From contig BPGK01000001.1 in NCBI GenBank assembly GCA_026002995.1, forward strand, positions 2,293,988 to 2,357,987: a DNA stretch of 64,000 bases, given 5' to 3'. Both the position numbers and the translations under genes were made by a program. This DNA comes from Gaiellaceae bacterium (GTDB taxonomy: Bacteria > Actinomycetota > Thermoleophilia > Gaiellales > Gaiellaceae). Under the pieces are notes generated by a model, which worked only from the letters and a program-made list of their open reading frames with translations, did no database searches and was not told the DNA's origin. The stretch's first letter is position 1. Every line of letters starts with the position of its first letter. This document shows, in pieces, positions 10,871-33,173 of this stretch.

Positions 10871-11092
10871 ATGCCGAAGATCTCCGCCGAGAACCAGGTC
10901 ACGATCCCAGTCGCCGTACTCGACGAGGCTGGGTTGCGCGCCGGCGACCACGTCGTCGTCGAAGCGCTCGCGGAAGGTGAGCTGCGCATCCGCCGGGGCG
11001 AGCTCAGCTTCGAGCGCGCCTTCGGCGCCCTCACCGGCGCCGACCCGCCTGGTTACCTAGAACGCCTCGACCGAGAAGACGCCGAGCTGTGA
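10871..11092 (+). CDS. AbrB/MazE/SpoVT-family antitoxin (VapB-like)
   Basis: ATG at 10871. The 73-aa product MPKISAENQVTIPVAVLDEAGLRAGDHVVVEA... has a swapped-hairpin beta-barrel signature. Its stop overlaps the PIN gene start. Confidence 0.8.
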   Translation: MPKISAENQVTIPVAVLDEAGLRAGDHVVVEALAEGELRIRRGELSFERAFGALTGADPPGYLERLDREDAEL

Positions 11093-11472: not shown

Positions 11473-11565
11473 TCATCGGCAGCCGTCGGAGCGTGTCGCG
11501 GTGGCCCGGCCACCCCATCCGCATGCATCGGAGCGCTCATCTTCGGGGCGCAAGGTCCGTGCAGA

Positions 11566-11588
11566 GTTCTTGTTGCTATGACAAGAAC
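11566..11588. promoter_or_regulatory. Perfect 8-bp inverted repeat upstream of the Nudix/NrtR-like gene (candidate operator)
   Basis: GTTCTTGT-tgctatg-ACAAGAAC lies 24 nt upstream of the ATG at 11612. A TATAGG -10-like hexamer at 11601-11606 leaves only 5 nt before the ATG, so the transcript may be leaderless. Confidence 0.4.
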
Positions 11589-11611
11589 CTGGTGCTAGGG
11601 TATAGGTCTAC

Positions 11612-16681: not shown

Positions 16682-18051
16682 CGGGCGACCTGCTCGAGGA
16701 GCCGCGCCGACTCGTCGATCACGCGCTCCACCTCGCCCCGGTCGACGTTCGAGTTGGTGATGCCGTACGCCCAGCGGTAGCGGTCCTGGTCGAGGATCTC
16801 GTCGAGCGGCACGCCAGCGACGAGGTCGAGGTCCTCGCTCGCGGGCAGGTAGCCCGCGTAGTCGTTGCAGTAGCCGAGGACGTGGGTGACGGCGAACGGG
16901 CTGCGCGCGCGGATCCGTCGCCCGCACTCGTTGAAGAGCTCGAACGGGTTCGCGGCGATCGCCGTCTCGCCGATCGCGAGCGCCTGCAGCTCGACCTCGA
17001 CGGGCACCTCGGCTCGGCGGCTCATGTCGGCGTAGAAGACGAGCGCGCTGCGCTGGTAGAGGGCAGGAAACTGCTGGGCGGAGGTGGCCGTATGAACTCC
17101 CTCCGGCCAGGCCTCGGGGAACGCGGGCTCGGGCTCAGCGGCGAGCTCGGCCAGCTTCGCCTCCACCTCGGCGAGCGGGTACGGCGCGCGGCGCCGACGG
17201 AGCTCGAGGATCGTAGCCGCCGAGGCGAGGCGGGCGGACGCGCGCGTCTCGATCTCCTCCAGCACGCCGACCGCAGCCTCGCCCAGCGCGCGCCCGAGCT
17301 CGTCCCGCTCCTCGTAGGAGTGCGGCCGCGCCTCCCAGTTGCCGAACCAGAAGTCCCAAGCCGCGACGTCGCCGCCACAGCCCTGGAGGAAGACGCACTC
17401 GACCCCGGGCAGCGCGGCGCGCACCGTGTCCCGGAGAGGCCCGGGGAAGTCCGCGTTCCAGAGCAGCGTCTCGCCGCCGATGGTCGTCGCGTGGCAGGCG
17501 AAGCTGACGACGGCCGCGAGCGGCCGACCGTCCGCCCGGTCGACGCGCAGCACCGGCAGCGCCCGGTCGACCTCGCGCGTCCGGTCGACGCGGTTGACGG
17601 TGATCTCGGGTGCCGTCCCGAGCCCCCATCCCACCCGTGCCGGGACCCGCTGGCGCCAGGCGGCGTAGACGGCGCCTGCGAGCTGGTCGGCGACGAGCTC
17701 CGCGTAGCGGGCGAACTCGGGAGCGTCGCGCAGCCCGGCGACGGTCGAGCCGCGCGAGAGGCTGGGCGCGCTGTGGTTGTGGGACGCGTTCACGAGCACC
17801 GCCTCGGGGGGAATCCCGGTCAGCTCGCCGGCGCGACGCCGGACGGCGAGCGTCAGCTCGCGGCCGGCGAAGACGAGGTCGACGGCGATGATCGCGAGCG
17901 CGGTCTCACCGTCACAGAGGACGAGCGCATGGCCGAGCATCGGATCGTGGATCCCGGTCGCGAGCCCCGAGCGGGCCGACCAGCAGCCGTGCGGGAGCCC
18001 GCAGGGCGGGGTGACGTCGACGCGGGCAATGCCGGCGGTGAGCGTGCTCAT
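16678..18051 (-). CDS. Neutral/alkaline ceramidase-like amidohydrolase family protein
   Basis: 457 aa. The N-terminus [19 protein letters not shown]...[10 protein letters not shown]...ASHNHSAP is typical of the neutral ceramidase N-terminal domain family. ATGA overlap with the downstream dehydratase gene. Confidence 0.7.
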
Positions 18052-18118
18052 GGCTCCTCCTTCACAGTCTGCGGATCGGCTCCTCGCACGTCTGCGGTCT
18101 CCTCGTGGATGCGGCCCG

Positions 18119-19141
18119 TCAGTCGAGCTCGGAGCGGTCGGCCTCGCGCGCGACGACGGCGACGCAGTCGCCCTGCGTCGTCGGCGCGATGGCGCGGATG
18201 GTGCAGACGATGCCCGCCGTCGAGGCCCGGACGAGCTCGGGCTCCCGATCGGGGCGCTCCAGGAAGAGCAGACGCCCGACCGGGTCGCCCACTTCGACCC
18301 GATCGCCGAGATCGACGAGCGCTTCCCATATGCCGGACTCGGGGGCGAGCAGGTAGTTCTCGAGCTCCGTCGCCATCAGCAGGCGCTGCTCCGGAAGCCC
18401 GAGGGACGCGCGCGTGGCGACCTCGCCGGCGAGCACGCCTTCGTGGCGCAGGACGTTGCGGAGCCCGCTCGCAGCGAGGCGGTGCAACGCAGCGGTCACG
18501 TGCCCGCCGCCACCGAGCTCGGCCGAGGCGACCACCTTGCCCTGCCGCTCCGCCTCGCCGACGAGGAGCCCCGTTCCGGCGATGTCGATGTAGACGGCGC
18601 ACCAGTCCGTGTTCCACGCATACATCGCGGCGACCATGCGTCGGCGCTGACCGGGATCCTCGACCCAGTGCATCTCGGCCCAGGGGAGGTGCATCCCCGA
18701 GCGCCCGCCCGAGTGGATGTCGACGACGACGTCAGCGAGCGGAAAGAGGACGGTGGAGAAGAAGTGCGCGAGCTGCTCGTCCGGGCTTCCATCGGGCGAC
18801 CCGGGGAAGGAGCGGTTCAGGTTCGCGCCCGACGGCCACAGTCGCGTGAACGCACGAGCGGCGTCCATCGACGCGCACGGAACGATGATGAGCCTCCCCG
18901 GGACCTCCTCGGGCGTCACCTCCCGAGCGAGCCCGAGCGCGGCGACCTGCCCCTCGGGCTCGTCGCCGTGGACGCCCCCGACGACGAGCGCCGTCGGCCC
19001 GTCGCCGCCGCGAACCGTCACAATCGGAACGACGGTGCTCGCCCACCCCGCCGTGTTCGAGGAGCGCGGGACGTGCAAGGCGCCGACCTGCTTCCCCGGA
19101 GCGTCGAGGTCGATGGTGCAGCGAACCGGCGACTCGGCCAT
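18119..19141 (-). CDS. Succinylglutamate desuccinylase/aspartoacylase (AstE/AspA, M14-like) family deacylase
   Basis: 340 aa. The zinc-site pattern [10 protein letters not shown]...NLNRSFPG...DIHSGG is present. Paralog of 21670..22695. Confidence 0.85.
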
Positions 19142-19158
19142 CTGCGGCGATCGTAGAA

Positions 19159-19191
19159 GATTGTTGACAATCTCGCTATAGTCAACAATCG
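19159..19191. promoter_or_regulatory. Two 12-bp boxes (ATTGTTGACAAT, ATAGTCAACAAT) 18 bp apart; candidate GntR operator
   Basis: The boxes are at 19160-19171 and 19178-19189 in the 88-bp divergent intergenic region. The same boxes with the same 18-bp spacing recur at 31407-31436, in front of the GntR gene. Each is a GT-N2-AC core palindrome typical of GntR/FadR sites. Confidence 0.5.
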
Positions 19192-19229
19192 TTCATGCGC
19201 CTCCCGCGCCGCGCCCTCCCGTCCATCTC

Positions 19230-20363
19230 GTGAAGATCACCGACGTCGAAGCGATCGTCCTCCGCCAGCCGGCCGTGGACGAGGGGATCGCGGACGGTAG
19301 TCAGGACGACCTGATCGTCCTCGTGCACACGGACGAGGGTCTGACCGGCATCGGTGAGGTCGACTCGGCGCCCGAGGTCGCGGCCGCGCTCATCCGCGGG
19401 AACGGCTCACACGCCGTCGCGATCGGCCTGCGCGAGCTGCTCGTCGGCGAGGACCCGCTCGACATCGAGCGGCTGTGGCAGAAGATGTACCGCGGGACGA
19501 TCTACGTCGGCCGTCGCGGGATCACCGTCCACGCCATCAGCGGGATCGACATCGCGCTCTGGGACCTCAAGGGCAAGGCGCTCGGTCGCCCCGTGTGCGA
19601 GCTCATCGGGGAGCCGAAGCGCGATCGCGTGCGCGCGTACGCCTCGCGGCTCATGCCCGAGACTCCCGAGGAGACCCGAGAGGCCGTCGCAGAGCTTCGC
19701 GCGCAGGGGTTCACGGCCGTGAAGCTCGGCTGGGGTCCGCTCGGAAAGGACCTCGGCCACGACCTCGCGCTCGCCGCGGCAGCGCGCGAGGCGGGAGGTG
19801 ACGGCGTCGACATCCTCATCGACGCCGGGCTCGGCTACGGAGACGACGTCGAGCGGGCGACCTACGTGGCTCGTGGGCTCGAAGAGCTCGGGGTCCGCTG
19901 GCTCGAAGAGCCATTCGAGCCCGACGAGTACGAGGCATACGCCGCGCTCGCGGACAGCGTCGAGATCCCAGTCGCGGCGGGTGAGCAAGACGCAACCAGG
20001 TGGGGCTTCCGCGAGCTCCTCGAGCGCGGGCACGTGGACATCGTCCAGCCGGATGTCACCCGCTGCGGTGGGATCAGCGAGCTCCTACGCATCGCCGACC
20101 TCGCGGCCGCACACGGCGTCCCGACCGTCCCGCACGCCTGGAAGAGCGGCATCATCAAGGCGGCGTCACTGCATGTCAACGCCGTCCTGCCGGAGGCGCT
20201 CTACCAGGAGTACTGCGTGGCCGAGACCCCGATCAACACCGAGCTCACGGTCGAGCGGCTGCCGATCGAGGCCGACGGCACCGTGGCCGTCCCCACCGGG
20301 CCTGGACTCGGAGTCGAGCTCGACTTCGACGTCGTCGAGCGGTTGCGGGTGGACGGGAGATGA
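19230..20363 (+). CDS. Enolase-superfamily enzyme (mandelate racemase/muconate lactonizing family, MR-like subgroup)
   Basis: 377 aa. MKITDVEAIVLRQP...VLVHTDEGLTGIGE. Ligands IDAGLGY / LEEPF / AAGEQD, then QPDVTRCGGISE and PHAWKSG. Confidence 0.9.
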   Translation: MKITDVEAIVLRQPAVDEGIADGSQDDLIVLVHTDEGLTGIGEVDSAPEVAAALIRGNGSHAVAIGLRELLVGEDPLDIERLWQKMYRGTIYVGRRGITVHAISGIDIALWDLKGKALGRPVCELIGEPKRDRVRAYASRLMPETPEETREAVAELRAQGFTAVKLGWGPLGKDLGHDLALAAAAREAGGDGVDILIDAGLGYGDDVERATYVARGLEELGVRWLEEPFEPDEYEAYAALADSVEIPVAAGEQDATRWGFRELLERGHVDIVQPDVTRCGGISELLRIADLAAAHGVPTVPHAWKSGIIKAASLHVNAVLPEALYQEYCVAETPINTELTVERLPIEADGTVAVPTGPGLGVELDFDVVERLRVDGR

Positions 20364-21673
20364 GCCAGGCGCCCCCCGAGAGCTCGGCGCACGCGCTGGC
20401 TCTGCGAGCGGCGGCCGCGATCCCCGGCGGCGTGAACAGCGGCCAGCGGCGCGTCCCGGGGCTCGAGGAGCTCGTCGTTGTCGCGACGAGCGGCGCGACG
20501 TTCACCGACGCCGACGGTCGGACGTACACCGACTACCACGCGGCCTTTGGGCCTCCGCTCCTCGGCCACAACGACCCGGACGTCGACGCCGCCGTCGCGG
20601 CGACGGCCGCGGAGCTCGGGAATATGGGCGTCGGCGTCACGCCGATCGAGATCGAGCTCGCCGAGCGGCTCGTCGCCTGCGTGCCCTCGCTCGAGAAGGT
20701 CCTGCTGACGGCGACTGGGAGCGAGGCGACCTTTCACGCGCTACGGCTTGCGCGCGTCGCCACGGGGCGTCGGCACGTGGTCAAGTTCCAGGGCTGCTAC
20801 CACGGCTGGCACGACTCGGTGGCGATGAACGTGATCTCGCCGCCCGAGCGTGTCGGCACGAAGGACCCTCTCTCCCAGGGGATCCTCCCGGAAGTGCTCG
20901 ACGCCACGATCGTCCTCCCGTTCAATGACGCGGACGCCGTCGAGCGCGCCCTTGCAGAGCACGACGTCGCGGCGGTCATCCTCGAGCCCATCCCGCACAA
21001 CATCGGTGCCGTGCTCCCGAAGCCGGGTTTCCTCGAGCGCCTCCGTGAGCTCACCGCGAGAAGCGGCACGGTGCTCGTCTTCGACGAGGTGATCACCGGC
21101 TTCCGCCACGGGCTCGGCGGCTACCAGGAGGTCGCGGGCGTGACTCCCGATCTGACGACTCTCGGCAAGGCGATGGCGAACGGGTGGCCCATCTCGGCGC
21201 TCGGCGGCCGTGCGGAGCTCATGGAGCTCTTCTCGACGACGCCGGGGCGGCCCGCCTTCTTCGCCGGCACCTTCAACGGCCACCCTGCCACCGCAGCCGC
21301 CGCGCTCGCGACGATCGAGAAGCTCGAGCGGGAGCCCGTGCATGAGCACGTCTTCCGGCTCGGCGAGCGGGCGCGCACGGAGCTGCAGGCCCTCTACGAC
21401 CGCCTCGGCGTTCCCGCCGTCGTCAGCGGCTTCGGGTCGGTCTTCGTCTCGTACTTCCTCGCCGGCCCCGTCGAGCGCTACGAGGACCTGCTCGCGAACG
21501 ACACCGAGCTCTTCACGGGGTACCGGCGCGAGCTCATGCGCCACGGAGTCTTCGAACTTCCGCTCAACCTCAAGCGCAGCCACGTCTCCTACGCCCATAC
21601 GGATGCGGACATCGACCGCCTGCTCGAGGCGACCGAGGCCGCTGTCACGTACGTGCTCGAGGCCCGCTCGTGA
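20360..21673 (+). CDS. Class-III (GSA-aminomutase-like) PLP aminotransferase
   Basis: The ATG at 20360 gives an ATGA overlap. 437 aa with TGSEATFHALRLAR, VFDEVITGFR and TLGKAMANG (PLP lysine). Confidence 0.9.
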   Translation: MSQAPPESSAHALALRAAAAIPGGVNSGQRRVPGLEELVVVATSGATFTDADGRTYTDYHAAFGPPLLGHNDPDVDAAVAATAAELGNMGVGVTPIEIELAERLVACVPSLEKVLLTATGSEATFHALRLARVATGRRHVVKFQGCYHGWHDSVAMNVISPPERVGTKDPLSQGILPEVLDATIVLPFNDADAVERALAEHDVAAVILEPIPHNIGAVLPKPGFLERLRELTARSGTVLVFDEVITGFRHGLGGYQEVAGVTPDLTTLGKAMANGWPISALGGRAELMELFSTTPGRPAFFAGTFNGHPATAAAALATIEKLEREPVHEHVFRLGERARTELQALYDRLGVPAVVSGFGSVFVSYFLAGPVERYEDLLANDTELFTGYRRELMRHGVFELPLNLKRSHVSYAHTDADIDRLLEATEAAVTYVLEARS

Positions 21674-22695
21674 CGGCGCTCTCGCCGGTCTCCTGCTCGA
21701 TCGACCTCGAGGCGCCCGGGAAGCGCATCGGCCACCTCGCGCTCCCGAAGATCACGAACACGGCCGGCTGGGCGAGCACGTTCATCCACCTCGGATGCGT
21801 CGTGAACGGTGACGGCCCGACTGTGCTCGTGCTCGCCGGAAACCACGGCGACGAGTACGAGGGACAGGTCGCGGCGCTGCGCCTGCTCCAGGAGCTCCGG
21901 CCCGAGCAGGTCTCCGGTCGTGTGATCGTGATCCCGGTGCTCTCCCCCGCCGCCTCGAAGGCGAACACGCGCAACTGGCCGTCCGGCGCGAACTTCAACC
22001 GCTCGTTCCCCGGCCGCCCCGACGGACCGCCGAACGAGCAGCTCGCCCACTACCTCTCGACTGTCCTCTTTCCCGAAGCCGACGTCGTCATCGACATGCA
22101 CTCCGGAGGCCGCAGTGCCTGGTTCGTTCCGTGCTCGCACATGCACGTCGTCGAGGATCCCGTGCAGCGTCGGGCCATGCTCGAGGGCATGGAGGCGTGG
22201 CTCAGCGACTTCCACTACCTGTACATCGACGTCAACGGCTCCGGGCTCCTGCCGGTCGAAGCCGAGCGCCAGGGGAAGCTCGTCATCACGACCGAGCTCG
22301 GTGGGGGCGGTCGCGTGCCTGCGCCGATCCACCGCCTCGCCTGGAACGGGCTGCTGAACGTCCTCCGCCACGTCGGCGTCCTCGATGGCGAGGCGCAGAC
22401 GCGCGAGTCGCTCGGACTGCCGCCCGCAATCATCCTCGACGGGCGCGACCCGGCAAACATCGTGCTGGCGCCCGAAGACGGCCTCTTCGAAGCGCTCCTC
22501 GAGCCGGGCGACCCGGTGGAGGAAGGGCAGATCGTCGGGCGCCTGTGGTTCATCGATCGCCCCGACCGCCCGCCACTCGAGATTCCCGCCCCGCTCGGCG
22601 GATACGTCGCCGCGACGAAGGCGATCCCCGTCACCGAGCAGGGCGACTGCGTGTTCTGCCTCGGGCAGCCGATCGAGCGAGCGGCGCTCCTCTGA
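21670..22695 (+). CDS. AstE/AspA-family deacylase, second paralog
   Basis: 341 aa with AGNHGDEYEG...NFNRSFPG...DMHSGG. Colinear similarity to 18119..19141 runs along the whole length. GTGA overlap with the aminotransferase gene. Confidence 0.85.
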   Translation: MTALSPVSCSIDLEAPGKRIGHLALPKITNTAGWASTFIHLGCVVNGDGPTVLVLAGNHGDEYEGQVAALRLLQELRPEQVSGRVIVIPVLSPAASKANTRNWPSGANFNRSFPGRPDGPPNEQLAHYLSTVLFPEADVVIDMHSGGRSAWFVPCSHMHVVEDPVQRRAMLEGMEAWLSDFHYLYIDVNGSGLLPVEAERQGKLVITTELGGGGRVPAPIHRLAWNGLLNVLRHVGVLDGEAQTRESLGLPPAIILDGRDPANIVLAPEDGLFEALLEPGDPVEEGQIVGRLWFIDRPDRPPLEIPAPLGGYVAATKAIPVTEQGDCVFCLGQPIERAALL

Positions 22696-22705
22696 GGTGA
22701 GGATC

Positions 22706-23956
22706 GTGCGCTGGCTCCGCGGACGGACGTTCGCGAGCCTGCGGCACCGCAACTTCCGGCTCTACTACGCGAGCCACGCGGTCGCCTTTGCCGGCCGCTG
22801 GATGCAGCAGATCGCGGCCTACTGGCTCGTGCTCGAGCTCACCCGCGATCCGGTCGCAGTCGGAGCGCTCGCGGTGTTCCAGCTCCTCCCCGTCACCGTC
22901 TTCGGGCTCGCAGCGGGGTCAGCCATCGATCGCTTCGACGTCCGCCGGCTCATCGTCTCGTGCGAGGCGGTCATGGCAGCGCTCTCGGCGATCCTCGCCG
23001 CCCTCACCCTCACCGGTGCGATCAACGTGTGGGGCGTCTACGCCGTCGTCGGCATCCAGGGGCTCCTCCTCGTCGTCGACAACCCGGCGCGACACGCGCT
23101 CGTATTCCGGATCGTCGGCCCCGCCGACCTCCCGAACGCCGTCGCGCTCAGCTCCGCGCTCGGAACGACGGCCCGCGTCGTCGGTCCGGCGCTCGGCGGT
23201 CTCGTCGTCGCGCTCGCCGGCGCTGGGGTCGCTTTTGCTCTGAACGCAGCGACCTACCTCGCAGTGGTCGCCGCCGTGCTCGCCATGCGCGAGAGCGACC
23301 TGCTCCCCGAGTCTCGTCACGACGCTCGAGTGGGGCTCCTCTCGGGGACGTGGGAGGCGCTTCGGTTCGCCTTCAGCTCCCGGCGAGTAGCCGTCGCCTT
23401 CCTCGCGGTGTTGATCGTGAGCACCGTCTCGTTCAACTTCGACGTGCTCTTCCCGCTCCTCGCTGCGGAGACACTCGCTGCCGGAGCGGCGACGTTCGGT
23501 CTCGTCGCGGCGGTCTTCGGGTTTGGCGCGCTCGTCGGCGCTCTCGGGCTCGCGACGATAGGGAGGGCCCGGATGCGGCTCCTCTTGCTCGGGGCAGGCG
23601 GGTTCGGCGTCGTGGAGCTCCTACTCGCGCCGCAGTCGACGCTCGTGGCCGTGCTCGCGCTTCTCGTTCCACTCGGCGTCTTCTACGTGTTCTGGGGGAC
23701 GAGCGCCCTTGCGACGCTCCAGCTCTCCGCGCCTCCAGCGCTGCGTGGGCGCGCTGTGAGCCTCTACTTCTTCGCCTTCCAGGGTGGAGCCCCGCTCGGC
23801 GGGCTGCTCGCCGGGTGGCTGACGAAGGTCGGCGGCACCGAGCTCGCCTTCGCCGTCGCCGGCGCGACCGCGATCCTCGTCTCGCTCGCTGGAGCGGCCG
23901 CGCTCAGGAACGCGCGGCAGAGGCGACATCAGCCGGCTGCGGCCGTGGTCTCTTGA
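22706..23956 (+). CDS. MFS transporter (EntS/MFS_3-like)
   Basis: About 12 hydrophobic segments. The start is ambiguous (GTG at 22697 or 22706). The N-terminus RWLRGRTFASLRHRNFRLYYASHAVAFAGRWMQ is typical of this MFS clade. Confidence 0.85.
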   Translation: MRWLRGRTFASLRHRNFRLYYASHAVAFAGRWMQQIAAYWLVLELTRDPVAVGALAVFQLLPVTVFGLAAGSAIDRFDVRRLIVSCEAVMAALSAILAALTLTGAINVWGVYAVVGIQGLLLVVDNPARHALVFRIVGPADLPNAVALSSALGTTARVVGPALGGLVVALAGAGVAFALNAATYLAVVAAVLAMRESDLLPESRHDARVGLLSGTWEALRFAFSSRRVAVAFLAVLIVSTVSFNFDVLFPLLAAETLAAGAATFGLVAAVFGFGALVGALGLATIGRARMRLLLLGAGGFGVVELLLAPQSTLVAVLALLVPLGVFYVFWGTSALATLQLSAPPALRGRAVSLYFFAFQGGAPLGGLLAGWLTKVGGTELAFAVAGATAILVSLAGAAALRNARQRRHQPAAAVVS

Positions 23957-24975
23957 GCAACCGCCGCGGCGGCGGCGATCGCCCGCTCGATCGCCTCGTC
24001 GTCGATCAGTCGGTGGGTGACGAGCCGGATGCGAGACCCGTCGCGCTCGAGCGCTCGAACCCCGTGCCGCGCGAGAGCTTCGACGAAGCCCGGTGGCTCC
24101 CAGCCGCTCGGGGTCACGTCGACGAGGACGATGTTCGTCTCCACCCGCTCGGGGTCGAGACGGAGGCCGTCGATCGCGGACAGCCCCTCGCCGAGCTCCC
24201 GCGCGCGACGGTGATCCTCGGCGAGCCGATCCCACATCGTCTCGAGCGCGACGAGCCCGGCTGCCGCCGCGATGCCCGCTCGGTGCATCGTCGCACCCCC
24301 GAGCTGGAGCAGGCGACGGCGGGCACTGTCGATGAACGCCTGCGAGCCGGCGAGGATCGTCCCGAACGGAGCGCTCAGCCCTTTGTTGAGGCTCAGCGCG
24401 ACCGAGTCCACCTCGGAGGCGAGCGCCCGCGGCTCGACACCGAGCGCGACCGCGGCATTCGCGAGACGGGCTCCATCGAGATGCACGCGGGCCCCGTGGC
24501 GACGTGCGACCGCAACGAGGGCAGAAGTCTCCTCGACTCCGAGCACGGTCCCGCCCGCCCTCGTGTGCGTGTTCTCGAGCGCAAGGACGGCCGCGCGTTG
24601 CTGGACGAGCTCCTCCTCGACGCGAGCGGGATCCAGCCTGCCGTCCGCGGCCCAGACGGCGAACGGCTCGAGCCCGGCCAGCTCCGAGATCGCCATTCCC
24701 TCTGAGGTGAGGATGTGCGCCGCGGCCTCGAGCACGACGCCCTGGCCCGGCTCCGCATGCACCGAGAGCGCCGCGAGGTTCGCCATGCCGCAGGTGGGCA
24801 CCCAGACCGCGGCCTCGTGGCCGAGGAGCGCCGCCCCCGCGGCCTCGAGCCGGTTGACCGAGTCGTCCTCCCCGTACGTCGCCCAGCCGAGCTCAGCCGC
24901 CCGCATCGCCTCCCACATCTCGTCCGTGGGGACGGTCATGAGATCCGACCGCAGGTCGATGGCCACGTCAGCCAC
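23929..24975 (-). CDS. Threonine aldolase-like PLP lyase (Beta_elim_lyase family)
   Basis: GTG at 24975 (or 24966). IDLRSDLMTVPTDEMWEAM, ENTHTRAGG, DGARLANA and SLNKGLSAPFG (PLP Lys). The 3' end overlaps the convergent MFS gene by 28 nt. Confidence 0.85.
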   Translation of the reverse strand: MADVAIDLRSDLMTVPTDEMWEAMRAAELGWATYGEDDSVNRLEAAGAALLGHEAAVWVPTCGMANLAALSVHAEPGQGVVLEAAAHILTSEGMAISELAGLEPFAVWAADGRLDPARVEEELVQQRAAVLALENTHTRAGGTVLGVEETSALVAVARRHGARVHLDGARLANAAVALGVEPRALASEVDSVALSLNKGLSAPFGTILAGSQAFIDSARRRLLQLGGATMHRAGIAAAAGLVALETMWDRLAEDHRRARELGEGLSAIDGLRLDPERVETNIVLVDVTPSGWEPPGFVEALARHGVRALERDGSRIRLVTHRLIDDEAIERAIAAAAAVAQETTAAAG

Positions 24976-26572
24976 GCAGCAGCTGCCGACCGGGCCGAGC
25001 GCCCGTGTGCTCCCCGCCGTCCACGACGAGGACGCCATTGACGAGGACGTACTCCACGCCGCGGGCGTAGGCGAGCGGGTTTTCGTCCGTCGAGACGTCG
25101 TCGAGCTCCTCGTAGTCGAAGACGACGACGTCCGCTGCATACCCGGGCAGCAGGAGGCCGCGGTCGCGGAGCCCGAAGTGGGCCGCGGGCATGCTCGTCA
25201 TCTTCCGGATCGCCTCCTCGAGGCGCAGCGTCCCGAGCCCGCGGACGTGGTGGGTGAGGTAGTGCACGTGCCCGGCGAAGGCGAGCGGGTGCTTCGCCAC
25301 CTGGCTCAAGGCGCCGTCGACGGTGCTCGTGAAGCTGTCGACGCCGAGCGAAAAGAGCGGGTGCGAGATCATCTCCGCCAGGTGCTCGTCGGTGAAGAGC
25401 CTGCCTACCATGAGCGCGCTCTCCATCGCCTCCCCCTCCGCGGCGAGGATGTCGAAGAAGCACTCCCACTCGTCCTTGCCGAGGATGGCAGCGATCTCCG
25501 GGAACGACTTCCCCTCGAGGCCCGCGTACTCGCGGCTCGACTGCAGGCGCACGCGATCCCACTCCCCGCGATGGATGAACCGCCAGTAGCGGTCGCACTC
25601 GCCACGGAGTCGGCGTCGCACCGAGGGCTGCCGCAGACGCTGCGCGGCCTGCGCCGCTCCGCCTTCCATCACCCACGGCGGGAGGATGGCGGCCATTTGC
25701 CCGAGACCGTCGCGGAGCGGTGTCGTGTCCGCGAGCACGTCGAGGCCCTGCTCACGGCTCTCGGCCATCATCTCGACCGCCCGCTCCCAGCCGCCGTCGG
25801 GCGCGCCCGTGTTGTGGCGCACGTTCAGGTGCGAGATCTCGGCCTTCGTGCCACCCGCGCGGGCGATCTCGAGGAACTCCGCGATCGAGGGCAGGAGCGC
25901 GGCGTCCCGGTTGCGGACGTGGCTCGTGTAGATCGCCCCCTCGTACTCGCCCGCGACTGCGTTCAGCCGCACGAGCTCCTCGGTCGGAGCCGCGCGGCCC
26001 GGCTCGAACTCGAGGCCGGTCGACATCCCGAGCACGCCGGCGTCCATCGCCTCGCGGAGCATGCGCTCCATCGCGCGCAGGTCCTCCTCGGTGGGCTCGG
26101 AGCCGGCGACACCGGCGGCCAGCCTGATCGCGTTGTGGCCGACGAACCAGGCGACGTTCTGCGAGTGGCCGAGCCGCTCGACGAACTCGAGCAGCTCGCC
26201 GGTGGTCGACCATTCGATCGGCCCCTCGTAGGCGAAGGTGCGCAGCCGGCCGAGCATCATCGCGTGCGAGTGCTCGCTGACCGGCGCGTAGCTCCAGCCG
26301 CAGTTGCCGACGATCTCCGTCGTCACACCCTGGCGGATGGTGCTCTCGGCGGTCGGGTTGGTGAGGATGGTGAAGTCGCTGTGGCTGTGCGGGTCGACGA
26401 AGCCCGGGCAGACCGTCTTCCCGGTCGCGTCGATCACGCGCTCGGCGGTGGCGCCCTCGTCGAGCCGCCCGACCTCCTTGATGCGACCGTCCTCAATCGC
26501 GACGTCGGCCAGGCGGGCCGGGTTGCCGGTGCCGTCGACGACCCAGCCGCCGCGGATCAGGACGTCGAGCAC
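24968..26572 (-). CDS. D-aminoacylase (N-acyl-D-amino-acid deacylase), amidohydrolase superfamily
   Basis: 534 aa. DVLIRGGWVVDGTGNP...GFVDPHSHSD...TSHVRN...ISHLNV and the C-terminal ADVVVFD are characteristic of D-aminoacylases. Confidence 0.9.
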   Translation of the reverse strand: MLDVLIRGGWVVDGTGNPARLADVAIEDGRIKEVGRLDEGATAERVIDATGKTVCPGFVDPHSHSDFTILTNPTAESTIRQGVTTEIVGNCGWSYAPVSEHSHAMMLGRLRTFAYEGPIEWSTTGELLEFVERLGHSQNVAWFVGHNAIRLAAGVAGSEPTEEDLRAMERMLREAMDAGVLGMSTGLEFEPGRAAPTEELVRLNAVAGEYEGAIYTSHVRNRDAALLPSIAEFLEIARAGGTKAEISHLNVRHNTGAPDGGWERAVEMMAESREQGLDVLADTTPLRDGLGQMAAILPPWVMEGGAAQAAQRLRQPSVRRRLRGECDRYWRFIHRGEWDRVRLQSSREYAGLEGKSFPEIAAILGKDEWECFFDILAAEGEAMESALMVGRLFTDEHLAEMISHPLFSLGVDSFTSTVDGALSQVAKHPLAFAGHVHYLTHHVRGLGTLRLEEAIRKMTSMPAAHFGLRDRGLLLPGYAADVVVFDYEELDDVSTDENPLAYARGVEYVLVNGVLVVDGGEHTGARPGRQLLRG

Positions 26573-26603
26573 GCGCTCCTTCCGCGCGGAGGCCGCACGC
26601 GTC

Positions 26604-27527
26604 TCACTCCCTCGGCGGAGCCGTGCCGACGACGGGGCCGAGCCGTGGGTCGAGGACGTCGCGGAGTCCGTCTCCGAGGAAGTTGAACCCGAGGACGACG
26701 ACCATGATCGCGGCGCCGGGGAAGATCGAGTACCACGGAGCGAAGTCGAGGTACGCGCGTGACGTGTTCAGCATCGACCCCCACGACGCCTCCGGCGGCT
26801 GCGTCCCGAGGCCGAGGAAGCTCAGAGCCGCCTCGGCGAGGATCGCGACCGAGAGGTACACGGTCACGAGCACGGTCAGCGGCGCGACGATGTTCGGGAG
26901 GACGTGCTTGCGCATGATCCTGCTCCCCGGCGCACCGAGCGCGCGCGCGGACTCGATGAACGGGAAGCCCATCACCTCGAGCACCGCGCCGCGCGTGACG
27001 CGGGCGAAGACCGGGATGATGATGATCCCGATCGCGATCATCGCGTTCCGCCGACTCGGCCCGAGGAGCCCGGCGATGAGTATCGCGAGCACGAGCCCGG
27101 GGAACGAGAACATGATGTCGACGACTCGCATGAGAACACCGTCGGTGACCCCCTTGTAGTAGCCGGCGACCAGCCCGAGCGCGGTGCCGAAGACGAGGGC
27201 GATCGAGACCGAGATGAGCCCGACCTGGAGCGAGACCCGCGCCCCGTGGATGATCCGCGCGAGGATGTCGCGGCCAAGCTCGTCCGTGCCCATCGGGTTC
27301 GTCCAGCTCGGCGCCAGGAGGCGCTCGTACTCCTGCGCGTCGGGGTCGATCGTCCAGACCTGGTTCCCGAACGCGGCAACGAGGATCACGAACAGCACGA
27401 TCGCCGCGCCGACGAGGCCGATCGGGTTGTACCAACGGCCGAGCCGCGCACGACCGCGCCGGCGGGCGCGCGGCGGCGCCGCGGCCGCGGCCACGGGCGG
27501 GCCCTCGGGAGCCAGTCTGCCGCTCAC
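26604..27527 (-). CDS. Peptide/nickel-type ABC transporter permease (DppC/OppC-like)
   Basis: 307 aa with six hydrophobic segments. EAA-like loop SARALGAPGSRIMRKHVLPN. GTGA overlap with the upstream permease. Confidence 0.9.
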   Translation of the reverse strand: MSGRLAPEGPPVAAAAAPPRARRRGRARLGRWYNPIGLVGAAIVLFVILVAAFGNQVWTIDPDAQEYERLLAPSWTNPMGTDELGRDILARIIHGARVSLQVGLISVSIALVFGTALGLVAGYYKGVTDGVLMRVVDIMFSFPGLVLAILIAGLLGPSRRNAMIAIGIIIIPVFARVTRGAVLEVMGFPFIESARALGAPGSRIMRKHVLPNIVAPLTVLVTVYLSVAILAEAALSFLGLGTQPPEASWGSMLNTSRAYLDFAPWYSIFPGAAIMVVVLGFNFLGDGLRDVLDPRLGPVVGTAPPRE

Positions 27528-28474
27528 GTCTGCGAGATCCTCGGGTCGAGGACGCCGTAGAGGATGTCGACGAGCAGATTGGCGACGATGAACGTCACCG
27601 CGATCAGCATGGTCGCCGCCTGGATGAGCGGGTAGTCGCGGCTGAAGATCGCCTGGAGCAGGACGTTTCCCACGCCCGGCAGGCCGAAGATGACCTCGAT
27701 GATCGCCGCCCCTCCGAGGAGGACGCCAACTTCGAAGCCGATGATCGTGACGACGGGGATGAGGGCGTTGCGAAGCGCGTGCCGGGAGACGACCTTGTTC
27801 CAGGAGACACCCTTCGCCCGCGCCGTCCGCACGTAATCCTGGCTCAGGACCTCGAGCATGGTCGCGCGGACCATCCGCATGATGATCGCGAGCGGGAAGA
27901 CGGAGAGGGCGATCGCCGGGAGGATGAACTGGGCGAGGTTCTGGATTGGGTCGTCGAGCGGCGAGACGTAGGTCAGCGGCGGCACCCAGCCGAAGACCCG
28001 TGAGGTGAAGAGGAGGAGGAGGGTCGCGAGCCAGAAGTTCGGGATGCTGACCCCGACGAGCCCGGTGACGCGCGAGGCGTAGTCGTGGGCGCTGTCGCGG
28101 CGCACGGCGGAGATCACGCCGAAGGGGATCCCGACCGCCGTAGCGATGAGGAGCGCCAGGAAGATCAACTCGAGCGTGATCGGGAGCGCCGCCTCGAGGA
28201 TGTCGCGCACGGGCTCGGCGTTGCGGAGCGACATCCCGAGATCGCCCCGCAGAGCACCCGTGGCCCAGCGCCAGTACTGCTCCGGGTACGAGCCGACGAG
28301 GCCGAGCTGCTCGCGTGCCGCCTGGCGCTGCTCCTCGGTCGTCGTGATGTCGCCCCCGATGAGGACGTCGAGCACGTCGCCGGGCAGGAGCCTAACCATG
28401 AGGAAGATGAGGATCGAGATGACGATCAGCGTCGGGATCGTGTAGAGGACGCGCCGCAGGATGTACGCGTACAT
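27524..28474 (-). CDS. Peptide/nickel-type ABC transporter permease (DppB/OppB-like)
   Basis: 316 aa. MYAYILRRVLYTIPTLIVISILIF... and YVRTARAKGVSWNKVVSRHALRNAL. Confidence 0.9.
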   Translation of the reverse strand: MYAYILRRVLYTIPTLIVISILIFLMVRLLPGDVLDVLIGGDITTTEEQRQAAREQLGLVGSYPEQYWRWATGALRGDLGMSLRNAEPVRDILEAALPITLELIFLALLIATAVGIPFGVISAVRRDSAHDYASRVTGLVGVSIPNFWLATLLLLFTSRVFGWVPPLTYVSPLDDPIQNLAQFILPAIALSVFPLAIIMRMVRATMLEVLSQDYVRTARAKGVSWNKVVSRHALRNALIPVVTIIGFEVGVLLGGAAIIEVIFGLPGVGNVLLQAIFSRDYPLIQAATMLIAVTFIVANLLVDILYGVLDPRISQT

Positions 28475-28496
28475 CGCCTACCCCCTGCCGTGCATG

Positions 28497-28526
28497 GGTG
28501 GGGCGCCGTTTGTGCGGCGCCCCACC
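28497..28526 (-). other. Perfect 12-bp GC stem-loop between the binding-protein and permease cistrons
   Basis: GGTGGGGCGCCG-tttgtg-CGGCGCCCCACC. It lies 25 nt downstream of the binding-protein stop (28551) and 23 nt upstream of the permease start (28474). There is no U-tract on the transcribed (minus) strand. Confidence 0.6.
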
Positions 28527-28550
28527 AGTCGTTTTGCCCAGACCACTGCC

Positions 28551-30191
28551 CTACTTGATGTAGACGTAGCGGATCCCGGTGTTGAAGTCGCTGAAGGCGA
28601 CGTACATGTTGTTGACGCGCCGGCGCACGACCTGGAACTTCTTCACGACACAGATCGGCACCTGGATGAGCTCGTCGAGGAGGATGCGCTGCGCCTCCTT
28701 GTACATCGGGAGCCGCTTCTCGAGGTCGAGCGTGATCCGGCCGTTGCCGATGAGCCGCCAGAGCTTCACCGGCGGCCGCCACTCCGGATACCAGACCCGG
28801 TAGATCGACGCGCTCGGGTTGAACTCGGCCAAGTAGCCGTCGACGTCACCGCGCATGCCGCGGGCCGTCAGGTCCCACTCGAAGTTCCCGCGGCCGTTGT
28901 TCGCCGCGAACGTCCCCGGCTCCTGGGCCTCGATCTTGACCTCGATCCCGATGCGCGCGAGCTGCGACTTGATCACCGCCGCGACCTGCTGGAAGTCGAG
29001 CGGCGTCGAGAAGGTGGACATCGTGACCTCGAACCCGTTCGCGTAGCCCGCCTGGCGCATGAGCTGCCGCGCCTTCGCGAGGTCGTACTTCAGCCACTTC
29101 TCCCGGAGCTCCTTGACCGGGAGCGGCCACGGCCCGTACCCGGGCGGGACGTGCCCCGAGAACTCGCCGTTCCCGCTGTACACGCGGTTGATGATCTCCT
29201 GCCGGTTGATCGCGTGGTTCACGGCCTGGCGAACCCGCTTGTCGTGCCAGGGCTTGCGATCGCCCGGCTTGTACGTCATCTGCAGCTCGCGGAAGGCAGC
29301 CGTGAAGTTGCTGAGGACCTTGAAGTTCGCGTTCCCCTGGAACTGCCTCGCGCTGTCCGGCGAGAGCGTCGCCCCATCGATCGCGCCGGCGCGCAGCGCG
29401 GCGATCCGCGCCTGCTCGTCGGTCAGGATCTTGAAGTTGACCGCGTTCAGGTACGGCTGCGGCTGTCGCCAGAAGCGGGGCCAGCGGACGAACTCGAGCC
29501 GGTCGTTCGGCTGGTAGGTGACGAGCCGGAACGGCCCCGTGCCGATGCCCTCGCGCCCGGGATTGACCTGCTGGTACATGCCCTCGGGCACCATGGGCGA
29601 GTAGCGGCCCCAGGCGAGGTACCCGAACAGGCGCGCGTCCGGGGCCTTGAGCAGGATCCGCAGGCGGTACTTGTCGATGACCTCGGTCCGGTCGATAGCC
29701 GGGAACTGCCCGAGGACAGCCGTCGAGCCGGGAGGCGGCGGATTCGCCTGCAGGTCGAAGGAGTACTTGCAGTCGGCCGCGGTCAGCTCCTTGCCGTTGT
29801 GGAAGCGAACGCCGCGCTTGAGCGTGAAGACGACGGTCCGTGGATCCACGACCTCCCACTTCTCGGCGAGCGCGACCCGGATGTTCAGCTTCGGATCCCA
29901 CTCGAGAAGCGAGTCGTACATGAGCTCCTTGCCCCAGTGGTTGGCGGTCAGGATCCCGCCGAAGGGCGCGATGTGCGCCGGATCCTGCTCCAGCGCCCAG
30001 TTGAGCGTCCCGCCGCGCGGAGGCCTGGCAGCCGTGCGGTCGACCGCGGCCTTCGCCGCCCTCGCCGTCACGCCGCCGAGCGCGCCCGCGGCGAGCGCGC
30101 CCGCGCCGACCTGGCCCGCGCGCGTCAGGAGCTCTCGCCTGGTGAGATCGCCCTTGCCGCTCTCTGGTACGACCTTGTCGTTGTCCGACAC
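28551..30191 (-). CDS. ABC transporter substrate-binding protein, family 5 (peptide/nickel), Tat signal
   Basis: GTG at 30191 is preceded by AAGGAGGAGG. The twin-arginine signal reads DLTRRELLTRAGQVGAGALAAG. The SBP_bac_5 body includes GTLNWALEQDP..., GTGPFRLV and YVAFSDFN. Confidence 0.9.
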   Translation of the reverse strand: MSDNDKVVPESGKGDLTRRELLTRAGQVGAGALAAGALGGVTARAAKAAVDRTAARPPRGGTLNWALEQDPAHIAPFGGILTANHWGKELMYDSLLEWDPKLNIRVALAEKWEVVDPRTVVFTLKRGVRFHNGKELTAADCKYSFDLQANPPPPGSTAVLGQFPAIDRTEVIDKYRLRILLKAPDARLFGYLAWGRYSPMVPEGMYQQVNPGREGIGTGPFRLVTYQPNDRLEFVRWPRFWRQPQPYLNAVNFKILTDEQARIAALRAGAIDGATLSPDSARQFQGNANFKVLSNFTAAFRELQMTYKPGDRKPWHDKRVRQAVNHAINRQEIINRVYSGNGEFSGHVPPGYGPWPLPVKELREKWLKYDLAKARQLMRQAGYANGFEVTMSTFSTPLDFQQVAAVIKSQLARIGIEVKIEAQEPGTFAANNGRGNFEWDLTARGMRGDVDGYLAEFNPSASIYRVWYPEWRPPVKLWRLIGNGRITLDLEKRLPMYKEAQRILLDELIQVPICVVKKFQVVRRRVNNMYVAFSDFNTGIRYVYIK

Positions 30192-30217
30192 GTTGCCTCC
30201 TCCTTTCCAGACGGTCG

Positions 30218-31375
30218 TCAGAGGATCTGACCGACCCGCGGTGCCTGTCCTTCGATGTCGTCGTAGAAGACGGCTTCGCGCACGGGAAGTTGCGCGAGTC
30301 GCTCGAGTGCGGCGGCGTCGACCGCCACGCCGAGCCCGGGCCCTGCAGGGACGTCGACGATCCCCGTGGCCATGTCGAGTCGCTCGACGAGGACGTCGTC
30401 GAGCTGCAGCGGGTAGTGGGTGTCGATGGCGAACGGAAACGCCTCGGACGAGGCGGCGAGGTGCAGGTTCGCCGCGGTCGCCACGCCCAGCTCCGCCCAG
30501 CTCCCGACCGCGCACCACTTCCCCGCGGCCTCGGCGACGGCCGCGATGTGCCGCGCCTTCGTGAGCCCACCCGCCTCCGACGGATAGACGACGAGGACGT
30601 CGCACGCGTCCGCGCGGATCAGATCGAGCGCCGAGCGGACGTCGCAGCACGCCTCGTCGGCGGCGATGGGCACGGAGACGGACCGCCGAACCTGCGCGAG
30701 CCCCTCGACGTCGAAGTCCGGCACCGGCTGTTCGACGTACTGGAGCTCGAACTTCTCGAGGCCGCGGATCCAGCGCACCGCCGTCGGCACGCTCCACATC
30801 ATGTTGGCGTCGATGCGGATCGGGACGTCGACCCCGACCGCATCGCGGATGGCTGCCAAGGTGTCGTGATCCTGGCCGTAGTCGCGGCCGACCTTGAGCT
30901 TGAGCTCGGTGAACCCCGCCTCGACGAACGCGGCCGCCCGCTCGGCGTTCGCCTCCGGCTCGTCGATGAAGAGGTAGCCGACGGCGGGCACCGTGTCCCG
31001 GCAGCGGCCGCCGAGCAGGTTCGCGACATCCGTTCCGAGCGCCTTGGCCTTGAGATCGAAGAGCGCGATCTCGATCCCGCTGATCGCGTATGCGGCGATC
31101 CGGCTCCAGTTGCGAGAGAACTCCTCCATGCGATGGACGAGTCGCTCGACGCGGAGCGGATCCTGGCCGAGGAGGAACTGCGCGAGCTCCCGATCGACGA
31201 TGGTGCGGATCGTCGGCAGGGTCGGCCCGGGGCACTCTCCGATCCCCACGATCCCCTCGTCGGTCTCGATCGCGACCACGATGCCCGAGGCCGACTGCCT
31301 CGTGCCACCTGCCCACACGAGGGGATGCGCAACGGGGACGCGGCACGTCGTCGTGTCGACCTTGGTGATCCGCAC
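30218..31375 (-). CDS. Enolase-superfamily enzyme (MR/MLE family; KxK-type, subgroup unclear)
   Basis: A GTG start at 31375 (VRITKVDTTTCRVPV...) is preferred over the TTG at 31414, which would overlap the operator boxes. ELKLKVG (KxK), IDANMMW, VEQPV, AADEAC. Confidence 0.85.
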   Translation of the reverse strand: MRITKVDTTTCRVPVAHPLVWAGGTRQSASGIVVAIETDEGIVGIGECPGPTLPTIRTIVDRELAQFLLGQDPLRVERLVHRMEEFSRNWSRIAAYAISGIEIALFDLKAKALGTDVANLLGGRCRDTVPAVGYLFIDEPEANAERAAAFVEAGFTELKLKVGRDYGQDHDTLAAIRDAVGVDVPIRIDANMMWSVPTAVRWIRGLEKFELQYVEQPVPDFDVEGLAQVRRSVSVPIAADEACCDVRSALDLIRADACDVLVVYPSEAGGLTKARHIAAVAEAAGKWCAVGSWAELGVATAANLHLAASSEAFPFAIDTHYPLQLDDVLVERLDMATGIVDVPAGPGLGVAVDAAALERLAQLPVREAVFYDDIEGQAPRVGQIL

Positions 31376-31406
31376 CGGTGTGGCTACACTACGGCCATCC
31401 GGTGAA

Positions 31407-31436
31407 ATTGTCAACTATCTTCCGATTGTCAACAAT
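31407..31436. promoter_or_regulatory. Two 12-bp boxes (ATTGTCAACTAT, ATTGTCAACAAT) 18 bp apart; candidate autoregulatory GntR operator
   Basis: The boxes are at 31407-31418 and 31425-31436, 10 nt upstream of the GntR ATG. GATTGTCAACAATA matches the reverse complement of 19159-19172 at 13 of 14 positions. Confidence 0.5.
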
Positions 31437-31445
31437 ACGCTCCTG

Positions 31446-32159
31446 ATGGCAGCGCCACGACGCAGAGCCGCGAGCGCCGGCGCAGGGGCACGCGAGCGCC
31501 CGAGCACGAGCCTCCCACGCCGACAGCAGGTGCTGGAGCACCTGCGCAGCGAGATCATGACCGGGCGCTACGAGCCCGGGGAGCGCCTGATCGAGGCGGC
31601 GATCTCCGAGGAGCTCGCGACGAGCCGCGGCCCCGTGCGGGAGGCGCTCCGCCAGCTCGAGCACGAAGGGCTCGTCGTCTCCATCCCCTACCGCGGTGCC
31701 GTCGTGCTCGAGGTCTCGGACGAGGAGGTGCAGGAGGTCCTCATCCCGATCCGCCTCACGCTCGAGAGCTTCAGCTTCCAGAAGGCGCTCGAGCTCATGA
31801 GCGACGACGACTTCGCCGAGCTCGGCAAGCAGCTCTGGATCATGGAGGAGGGCGCACGACGCTCCGATCTGCAGCAGGTGGTCGAGGCGGATCTCCGCTT
31901 CCACGAGCTCGTCATCGCCGCCTCGAGGCGGCCGCACACGATGCAGGTGTGGCGGAGCATCTGGCCGCGCATCCGCAACTACTTCGTCCGGTACGGACGC
32001 TTCCGCGAGCTGGACTCGATCGTCACCGAGCACCGGGAGCTGCTCGAGGCGATGCGCAGCGGCGACCGGAAGTGGATGCTCGAGGTGCTCGAGCGCCATA
32101 TCGACGTGCCCGTTCCCGGCGCTCCCGAGCGCGCCGGCACCGCGGAGTCGAAGGCGTAG
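31446..32159 (+). CDS. GntR-family transcriptional regulator (FadR subfamily, FCD domain)
   Basis: ATG at 31446. 237 aa with w[36 protein letters not shown] followed by an all-helical FCD-like C-terminus. Confidence 0.9.
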
Positions 32160-33173
32160 ATGGCCGACAACACTCCGCTCCTTCGCGTCACAGGGCTCCG
32201 CACGTACTTCTACACCCTCGACGGCGTCCTGCGGGCGGTCGACGGCGTCGACCTGACGATCGGGCACGGCGCCGCCGTCGGCCTCGTCGGGGAGTCTGGC
32301 AGCGGCAAGTCGGTGACCGCCCTCTCCCTGCTCCGGCTGGTCGATTCGCCGGGGCGGATCGAGCCGGGGAGCGTGATCGAGCTCGAGGGCCGCGACCTCT
32401 CCGCCCTGACGGAAGCCGAGCTGGAGCAGGTTCGCGGCAAGGAGATCTCGATGATCTTCCAGGAGCCGATGACGTCACTGAACCCCGTGTTCACGGTCGG
32501 CGACCAGATCGCCGAGGCGGTGCGCCTGCACGAGGGGCTCGGCGCGAAGGACGCGTGGGCGAAGGCCGTCGAGATGCTGCGTCTCGTCGGGATCCCTTCG
32601 GCCGAGCGGCGCGTGCACGACTACCCGCATCAGATGTCGGGCGGCATGCGGCAGCGGGTGATGATCGCGATGGCGCTCTCCTGCAACCCGAAGCTCCTGA
32701 TCGCCGACGAGCCGACGACGGCGCTCGACGTCACCGTCCAGGCGCAGATCCTCGAGCTCATGAAGGAGCTCCGCGAGCGGCTCGGGATGTCGATCCTCCT
32801 CATCACCCACGACCTCGGCGTGATCGCCGAGATGGTCGACGAGGTCGCGGTGATGTACGCGGGGCGGATCGTCGAGCGCGGGCCGGTGGCGGACGTCTTC
32901 GCGAACCCTCAGCACCCGTACACGGAGGCGCTCCTGCGCTCGATCCCGGTCGTCGGCATGACCTACGCGCAGCCCCTGCGAGCGATCCGGGGCATGGTTC
33001 CGAGCCCGCTCGAGTGGCCGCCCGGGTGCCGGTTCGCCCCCCGTTGCGACTACGCGTTCGCGAAGTGCGCGACCGAGGATCCGCACCTGCTGCCCGCAGG
33101 CGACCAGGAGTCGGCCTGCTGGCTCAGCGAGCAGGGGTGGCGCCCGACCGCGACCATCGAGGTCGCGACGTGA
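32160..33173 (+). CDS. Peptide-type ABC transporter ATP-binding protein (DppD/OppD-like)
   Basis: Walker A GESGSGKS, signature MSGGMRQR, Walker [13 protein letters not shown], and a C-terminal oligopeptide-transporter extension. Confidence 0.92.

Follow-up and report, generated by a model that had tools for sequence, protein, structure and literature searches.

Paired palindromic boxes in two divergent intergenic regions point to a probable local GntR regulon of four operons in a Gaiellaceae genome

Are four neighbouring operons in a Gaiellaceae genome governed by one transcriptional regulator through a shared operator? The question is raised by a stretch of 64,000 bp (NCBI GenBank assembly GCA_026002995.1, contig BPGK01000001.1, positions 2,293,988 to 2,357,987; hereafter the window), in which two short divergent intergenic regions 12 kb apart each carry a pair of 12-bp palindromic boxes, and one of the two regions directly precedes a gene for a GntR-type regulator (gntR). 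An earlier annotation, the sequence-only reading, had proposed that this regulator binds at both places and thus unites 20 genes in one regulon. The boxes are in our view quite probably operators of the adjacent FCD-type GntR protein, which would repress the four operons as one local regulon, a reading that is supported to the limit of sequence analysis. The one-regulon proposal stood in silico with respect to the shared boxes, the motif class, the adjacent regulator, the conservation and the specificity; it was refined in one respect, as the boxes also overlap core promoter elements.

The boxes follow the pattern ATTGT-NN-ACAAT and are four in number, arranged as two pairs, one in the intergenic region of 88 bp at 19142-19229 (locus 1) and one in that of 70 bp at 31376-31445 (locus 2; Table 1). 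The positions and sequences proposed earlier were reproduced exactly, and the start-to-start distance between the boxes is indeed 18 bp in both loci. The extended site GATTGTCAACAAT(C/A), for which a match at 13 of 14 positions had been claimed, holds when locus 1 is taken on the reverse strand. The best alignment of the pairs, obtained with locus 2 reverse-complemented, has the common architecture ATTGTTGACAAT-N6-ATAGT(CA/TG)ACAAT, in which the perfect box adjoins the deacylase gene or gntR and the ATAGT-variant box adjoins an enolase-superfamily gene. As had been noticed, the boxes and their immediate flanks are the only AT-rich 12-mers of both intergenic regions; the window has a G+C content of 71 %, and 12-mers with three or fewer G+C occur 31 times in it, ten of them at the two box loci. 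A scan of the window with the degenerate pattern ATWGTYRACWAT, allowing one mismatch, gave exactly four matches, all of them the boxes, against a mean of 0.04 matches in dinucleotide-preserving shuffles, and 0 of 100 shuffles reached four. The motif is thus above chance upstream of at least two transcription units. No other site was present in the 64 kb; with two mismatches allowed, one further weak match appeared, intragenic, at 27578. A full-text literature search with the core TTGTCAACAA returned unrelated primers and sequences only, and no earlier description was found. The reading of the loci as RNA elements was dropped because neither locus matched an RNA family when the window was scanned with Rfam.

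Conservation was followed in relatives retrieved by protein similarity, a set of 17 box pairs that is unbiased as to the DNA pattern. The pair was present upstream of gntR in all eight loci retrieved with the GntR protein (62-83 % identity): four genome contigs with a GntR of 76-83 % identity had both boxes 18 bp apart and diverged DNA between boxes and gntR, and four further orthologues of 62-67 % identity were preceded by the pair as well. Likewise, the locus-1 pair recurred at 18 bp in 4 of 4 distinct clusters retrieved with the enolase encoded at 19230 (77-88 % identity). Conservation upstream of orthologous clusters, suggested earlier as a check, was thereby borne out. The spacing was 18 bp in 17 of 17 pairs, with distances from box to gene start between 4 and about 100 nt and intergenic lengths ranging from 70 bp, as in the window, to 212 bp, as in the contig L136 (L numbers denote relatives). 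The inter-site spacing, constant whatever the intergenic length, is that of a double-site divergon. In the alignments of locus 2 (A1) and locus 1 (A2) the boxes are conserved islands amid diverged intergenic DNA. Counterparts of box 19160-19171, with TG or AG in a variable centre, were found in L007, L008, L010, L012 and L135, and those of box 31425-31436, again with a variable centre, in L001-L004 and L134-L137; the ATAGT-variant arm of box 19178-19189 recurs in relatives, and the second box of L012 has decayed to ATGATCGACAAT. Symmetric arms were kept in the protein-retrieved loci, bar one decayed arm each in L134 and L012. The motif was not found at two loci with GntR matches of 30 % identity (L005, L006); all other GntR relatives among the matches listed had at least 62 % identity.

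Two relatives deviate in gene arrangement. The rearranged contig L135 (5783-10744) has the order enolase (-), boxes, enolase-aminotransferase (+), boxes, gntR (+); the counterpart of the 31375 operon, with the peptide transporter, is missing, and hydantoinase genes lie downstream. There gntR has moved yet keeps its own box pair, the locus-1 pair is present too, and the leftward TAGTGT of the gntR pair faces into the aminotransferase gene at its 3' end. In L136, a metagenome-assembled genome (MAG) of Gaiella sp. (DATEET010000033.1), the pair together with the adjacent -10-like block is tandemly duplicated (2903-2932 and 3022-3051, 119 bp apart) within one intergenic region between the enolase gene and gntR.

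A search starting from the motif instead of the proteins asked metagenome contigs for ATTGTNNACAAT-N6-ATRRTNNACAAT and returned at least 120 stretches. Among the matches listed, 11 were low-GC chance matches and 109 were high-GC. Of the latter, 105 lay at orthologues of the two divergons, 45 between the orthologues of the deacylase and enolase-19230 genes and 60 between those of gntR and the enolase-31375 gene, and no third target class appeared among these matches. Gene orientation around the pair was uniform throughout (56, 51, 42 and 42 neighbouring genes), and gntR adjoined the pair in 56 of the 60 gntR-type loci. What can be read from the set is how exclusive the association is and how those positions behave that the pattern left free. 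The four remaining high-GC matches, all at contig ends, were unclassified. Two of them (L016, L076) were considered as a new target class and rejected; they are variants of the gntR locus, because they carry an extra gene beside the gntR-side box as the classified L043 does. This gene, situated between the boxes and gntR (L043 2349-3044, L016 67-777, L076 1025-1768), encodes about 231-247 amino acids beginning with M.LRGSAFLAIWHDIE.HGE.EF..WHTREHMPER and matches no Pfam family; the window lacks this gene, which may be a further member of the regulon.

Overall, the boxes are conserved across regulators with 47-89 % identity and across more than 100 contigs, in which their orientation is fixed. 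Together with the shuffle control and the strictly intergenic location, this refutes the reading of the boxes as chance repetition or as a dispersed repeat with no regulatory role, in favour of which the small box size could be named and nothing more.

Regulator and motif belong to the same class. The FCD-type GntR gene announced for position 31446 was confirmed by Pfam, with PF00392 (GntR winged helix) at residues 27-87 (61.7 bits, cut-off 27) and PF07729 (FCD) at residues 101-220 (82.7 bits, cut-off 24.3). The AlphaFold2 model, with a predicted local distance difference test (pLDDT) of 74, has a winged helix of three helices and a two-strand wing, then an all-helical domain whose helices span residues 92 to 219. 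Its top Foldseek matches, McbR, AlkR(VanR), PmiR, TM0439 and Atu1419, are FCD/VanR-type regulators, and the best solved relatives by sequence are TM0439 (E 5e-18), PmiR and McbR. The residues D149, H153, H196 and H218 are invariant in 12 orthologues, make up the Asp/Asn-x3-His...His...His metal signature of FCD domains and align with D130, H134, H174 and H196 of TM0439 (metal-ligand identities and residue numbering: PMC6608401, PMC7674646). Because the signature is invariant and aligned to the TM0439 metal site, the FCD domain likely contains a metal-assisted pocket for a small carboxylate ligand. A public gene call starts gntR at GTG 31530 and yields 209 amino acids. We consider ATG 31446 the more likely start, because P24, R25 and Q27, encoded upstream of that GTG, are conserved in orthologues; this is despite the low G+C content at third codon positions (GC3) of the first 28 codons, an atypical 0.71 versus 0.96 downstream.

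FadR-subfamily operators have TKGT/ACMA arms with a GT-AC distance of 2-3 nt, 2 nt being the less common variant (PMC4494728). The boxes, written as A-TTGT-NN-ACAA-T, fit this consensus with a distance of 2, in agreement with the earlier assignment of their GT-N2-AC palindromic core to the GntR/FadR type. That the boxes are operators of another regulator encoded elsewhere, with the adjacent GntR serving other targets or none, appears very unlikely. Such a regulator finds some room in the fact that 64 kb of the genome were examined and that GntR binding to the boxes is a prediction. However, in its class the motif agrees exactly with FadR-subfamily GntR proteins. Furthermore, gntR stands next to the pair in all eight loci retrieved with its protein and in nearly all metagenomic gntR-type loci among the matches listed, and it retains the pair after the rearrangement in L135.

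Are the boxes operators, promoter elements or both? Three of the four box positions have a variable central dinucleotide (TG, AG, CG, CA, CC). In the alignments, conserved arms with a variable centre are the behaviour expected of a dimer-binding palindrome and not of a -35 hexamer; an interpretation as -35 hexamer only was ruled out by this variation. The fourth position, box 31407-31418, holds TTGACA on the minus strand (31414 to 31409). Its homologues have the centre TG in 57 of 57 unique metagenomic copies, which yields TTGACA on the strand of the 31375 operon, and a TANNNT follows at a spacer of 17-18 bp in 53 of these 57 unique relatives. In the window the candidate -10 hexamer stands 17 bp downstream (Table 1). 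Furthermore, the TACACTACGG block is invariant in alignment A1, and the enolase start lies at a constant 29-34 nt beyond the homologue of this box. Because a fixed TTGACA sits 17 bp from a conserved TAGNNT, box 31407-31418, a putative operator, is predicted to be also the -35 element of the nearly leaderless promoter of the 31375 operon. Towards gntR, a consensus scan of 31300-31550 gave a sole match, versus 0.0 expected: TTGTCA-17-AACAAT, composed of both boxes. The 18-bp repeat of the palindrome yields TTGTNN-17-NACAAT on both strands, and this promoter geometry may explain the fixed spacing.

These promoter features invite the reading that the boxes are core promoter elements and nothing else, with TTGACA or TTGTCA as -35 and NACAAT as -10 of strong bidirectional promoters that need no dedicated factor. 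The invariant TTGACA paired with a conserved -10, the promoter called across the locus-2 pair and the geometry that the 18-bp repeat creates by itself all count in its favour, as do 15 of 44 locus-1 relatives with a box reading TACAAT on the strand of the deacylase gene. We nevertheless judge it highly improbable. The dyad symmetry is kept at positions irrelevant to sigma-70 contacts, and three of four box positions show free variation of the central NN, which would belong to TTGACA. The sequence stands at no other promoter in the 64 kb. General promoter elements would be expected widely in metagenomes, but among the matches listed the sequence is nearly confined to these two divergons; moreover, it always travels with a GntR gene.

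For the operator reading, a simple mechanism can be proposed. Each 12-bp box would hold one dimer of the GntR protein, so that two dimers would sit side by side, 18 bp centre to centre, on a 30-bp module at each divergent region. Since the boxes overlap core promoter elements, their occupancy would block RNA polymerase both ways, and the four operons together with gntR itself would be repressed. A small carboxylate-bearing metabolite of the pathway would probably bind the metal-containing FCD pocket and free the repressor. We infer the repressor role from the position of the sites and from the analogy with DgoR, Atu1419 and HypR. That the 20 genes would act as one local regulon is suggested by their products, because they encode peptide uptake together with deacylase, racemase, aldolase and aminotransferase chemistry.

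Alternatively, GntR may bind the boxes and activate some of the four promoters or regulate them in a dual manner. Activators exist in the FCD family, and CitO binds upstream of the -35 element (PMC6608401); the positions of the locus-1 promoters were settled neither by the scan nor by manual candidates. The latter, TTGACT-16-CAATCT, a TAGNNT 4 nt past the box in 28 of 44 relatives and the TACAAT inside the box in 15 of 44, were rejected as mutually inconsistent. At locus 2, in contrast, the boxes overlap the leftward -35 and the whole predicted gntR promoter, a position typical of repression, and most characterised members of the FadR subfamily with promoter-overlapping sites are repressors (DgoR, HypR, Atu1419). 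A CitO-like role is therefore unlikely, though less so than the alternatives above.

Several points weigh against a local regulon of cooperative repressor dimers. The metagenome pattern demanded the arms, so that their invariance in the 105 loci is by construction. A distance of 18 bp corresponds to about 1.7 helical turns; the dimers would therefore not lie on the same face of the helix, and cooperativity is not obvious. A consensus scan of 19050-19300 found no locus-1 promoters. Finally, the within-genome motif scan covered 64 kb of about 2.6 Mb, and single-box targets may exist elsewhere in the genome.

The arrangement admits a further interpretation, which we put forward tentatively and regard as rather unlikely: the box pair, a single symmetric 30-bp module (ATTGTNNACAAT repeat), would itself serve as core promoter in both directions while also binding two repressor dimers. 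The 18-bp spacing would then be set by the 17-bp spacer of RNA polymerase and not by contacts between dimers. Such a module would be portable, copied to the second divergon, placed in tandem in L136 and carried with gntR in L135, and it could put any gene pair under the control of the regulator.

The presumed operator pairs resemble several described systems. In double-site divergons the regulator gene lies in the divergon and two palindromic sites stand at a constant distance close to the centre of the intergenic region, from which cooperative control of both operons was deduced (PMC4494728). Locus 2 matches this class as described by Suvorova, Korostelev and Gelfand in 2015; their survey has no regulon from Thermoleophilia or Gaiellales and does not contain this gene set (PMC4494728). 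Here a second divergon that lacks a regulator gene also has a constant-distance pair, whereas the regulator-less control group of the survey had independently acting sites only (PMC4494728). DgoR of Escherichia coli, the FadR-subfamily repressor of D-galactonate catabolism, shares the GntR winged helix and the metal-containing FCD-type domain; it likewise has two inverted repeats close together over the promoter, their arms being TTGT...ACAA, for which two dimers were deduced, is autoregulated and controls an operon with an enolase-superfamily dehydratase (PMC11705089, PMC7674646), as enolase-superfamily genes occur here. The similarity of GntR to DgoR's C-terminal domain (7c7e) is weak on the sequence level (E 1e-10). 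The DgoR repeats TTGTAGTACAA have a GT-AC distance of 3 and serve a single operon, in contrast to the distance of 2, the two divergons 12 kb apart and the four operons here. Atu1419 of Agrobacterium fabrum, the VanR-type FCD GntR repressor among the Foldseek matches, recognises the palindrome ATGTATACAT with a GT-N2-AC core as here, has sites overlapping -10/-35 elements in two or more promoter regions, among them its own divergon, and contains Zn in the FCD pocket (PMC7797058). As a tetramer it loops DNA between palindromes 109-190 bp apart (PMC7797058), whereas the palindromes here are adjacent with a 6-bp gap. HypR of Streptomyces coelicolor and TM0439 of Thermotoga maritima are FCD regulators with a His3 metal site that share the domain architecture and the D/H/H/H signature. 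HypR, from an actinobacterium, represses its own gene and a cluster for amino-acid catabolism; unlike the boxes, its motif CTNTGC(A/C)ATGTCAC is barely symmetric, and its regulon serves hydroxyproline catabolism. For TM0439 no DNA target is known. A FadR/VanR-type repressor that acts locally through double operators in divergons is a known type of bacterial switch, of which this would be a new instance.

Table 1 Coordinates of the putative regulatory elements and of the four operons in the window
Feature	Coordinates	Strand	Sequence	Description
Putative operator box, locus 1	19160-19171		ATTGTTGACAAT	perfect 5+2+5 palindrome arms; DoeB/AstE-like gene side
Putative operator box, locus 1	19178-19189		ATAGTCAACAAT	one arm mismatch; side of enolase gene 19230
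Putative operator box, locus 2	31407-31418		ATTGTCAACTAT	side of enolase gene 31375
Putative operator box, locus 2	31425-31436		ATTGTCAACAAT	gntR side; ends 9 nt before ATG 31446
Candidate -10	31386-31391	-	TAGTGT	17 bp downstream of TTGACA; for operon 31375 to 23929
Promoter-like site	31408-31436	+	TTGTCA-17-AACAAT	made of both boxes, points at gntR; putative function
gntR	31446-32159	+		FadR subfamily, 237 amino acids; first gene of operon 4; presumed box binder
Operon 1	14115-19141	-		DoeB/AstE-like deacylase, ceramidase-like protein, enolase-superfamily enzyme (galactonate-dehydratase-like), GlcD-like FAD (flavin adenine dinucleotide) oxidase
Operon 2	19230-23956	+		enolase-superfamily enzyme, class III aminotransferase, second DoeB/AstE-like deacylase, MFS transporter
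Operon 3	23929-31375	-		MLE-subgroup enolase (racemase/epimerase-like), peptide-type solute-binding protein, two permeases, further genes
Operon 3, remaining genes		-		Amidohydro_3 (D-aminoacylase-like), GntG-family PLP (pyridoxal phosphate) aldolase (threonine-aldolase-like)
Operon 4	31446-38140	+		gntR, two Opp/Dpp-type ATPases, S15 peptidase, class I/II aminotransferase, MFS transporter

What would such a regulon be for? Gene calling based on GC3, followed by Pfam and NCBIfam annotation, reproduced the count of 20 genes in four tight operons; the cluster measures about 24 kb and is bounded on both sides by convergent genes. The synteny of operon 1 is kept in L007, L008 and L012, and operons 2, 3 and 4 are likewise syntenic in relatives. 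The nearest public contigs are Gaiellaceae and Thermoleophilia MAGs. The best solved relatives of the MLE-subgroup enolase (gene 31375) are the MR/MLE-family protein 2p88 and the dipeptide epimerase 3jva, and the enolase at 15509-16681 matches the galactonate dehydratase model at the borderline. None of the other cluster enzymes reaches an NCBIfam equivalog cut-off for a known activity. An assignment of the substrate through PDB and NCBIfam was rejected, as the best matches are below equivalog cut-offs or are structural-genomics entries of unknown function and allow a guess at the class level only. The combination of a peptide ATP-binding cassette (ABC) transporter, an S15 peptidase, the MLE enolase, a D-aminoacylase-like hydrolase, deacylases, an aldolase and aminotransferases suggests, with low confidence, that small peptides or N-acyl amino acids with D- or beta-hydroxy residues are taken up and degraded.

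To our knowledge there is almost no genetics in the Thermoleophilia. The cluster is widespread in soil Gaiellaceae and other Thermoleophilia and includes three enolase-superfamily enzymes, two DoeB/AstE-like deacylases, a D-aminoacylase-like hydrolase, a GntG-like aldolase and a peptide ABC transporter. The predicted cis-regulatory code of these 20 genes of unknown function is experimentally tractable, and the search for the substrate becomes narrower if the shared operator links the four operons. The FCD regulator may be used as a handle for ligand screening or as a biosensor. For GntR biology nothing fundamentally new emerges; the main use is a handle on an uncharacterised cluster of uncultured actinobacteria.

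Some minor observations concern the cluster and its surroundings. In three relatives a CN_hydrolase gene (nitrilase/amidase type) lies between the deacylase and the ceramidase-like gene (L007 4217-5113, L008 4326-5219, L012 7985-8881). The window has only a 67-bp gap at this position (18052-18118), so the gene appears to be absent from this genome. Ahead of the enolase start in operon 2, a GGAGG-type ribosome-binding site is clear in relatives (L010, L012); the 40 nt upstream of GTG 19230 (19190-19229) have no such site and CCTCCC instead, which makes the initiation mode or the start codon uncertain. Beyond operon 4, the minus-strand neighbours at 38168-47375 are of the amino-acid/peptide type (an AMP-binding enzyme, an M20 peptidase, a second S15 peptidase, hydantoinase/oxoprolinase A and B) and have no box upstream; the pair of AMP-binding enzyme and M20 peptidase is syntenic with the cluster in L134, L136 and L137. 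On the other side, an AT-rich inverted repeat, TATATCACTAATGATATG, lies at 10236-10255 just upstream of a small minus-strand gene (9911-10222) and within about 1.4 kb that contain no confident gene call (10223-11611). The repeat may be another operator or promoter. Next to it, 11612-12370 encodes an NrtR-like regulator with a Nudix and an NrtR winged-helix domain, and a tRNA gene at 6631-6704 is the sole Rfam match in the window.

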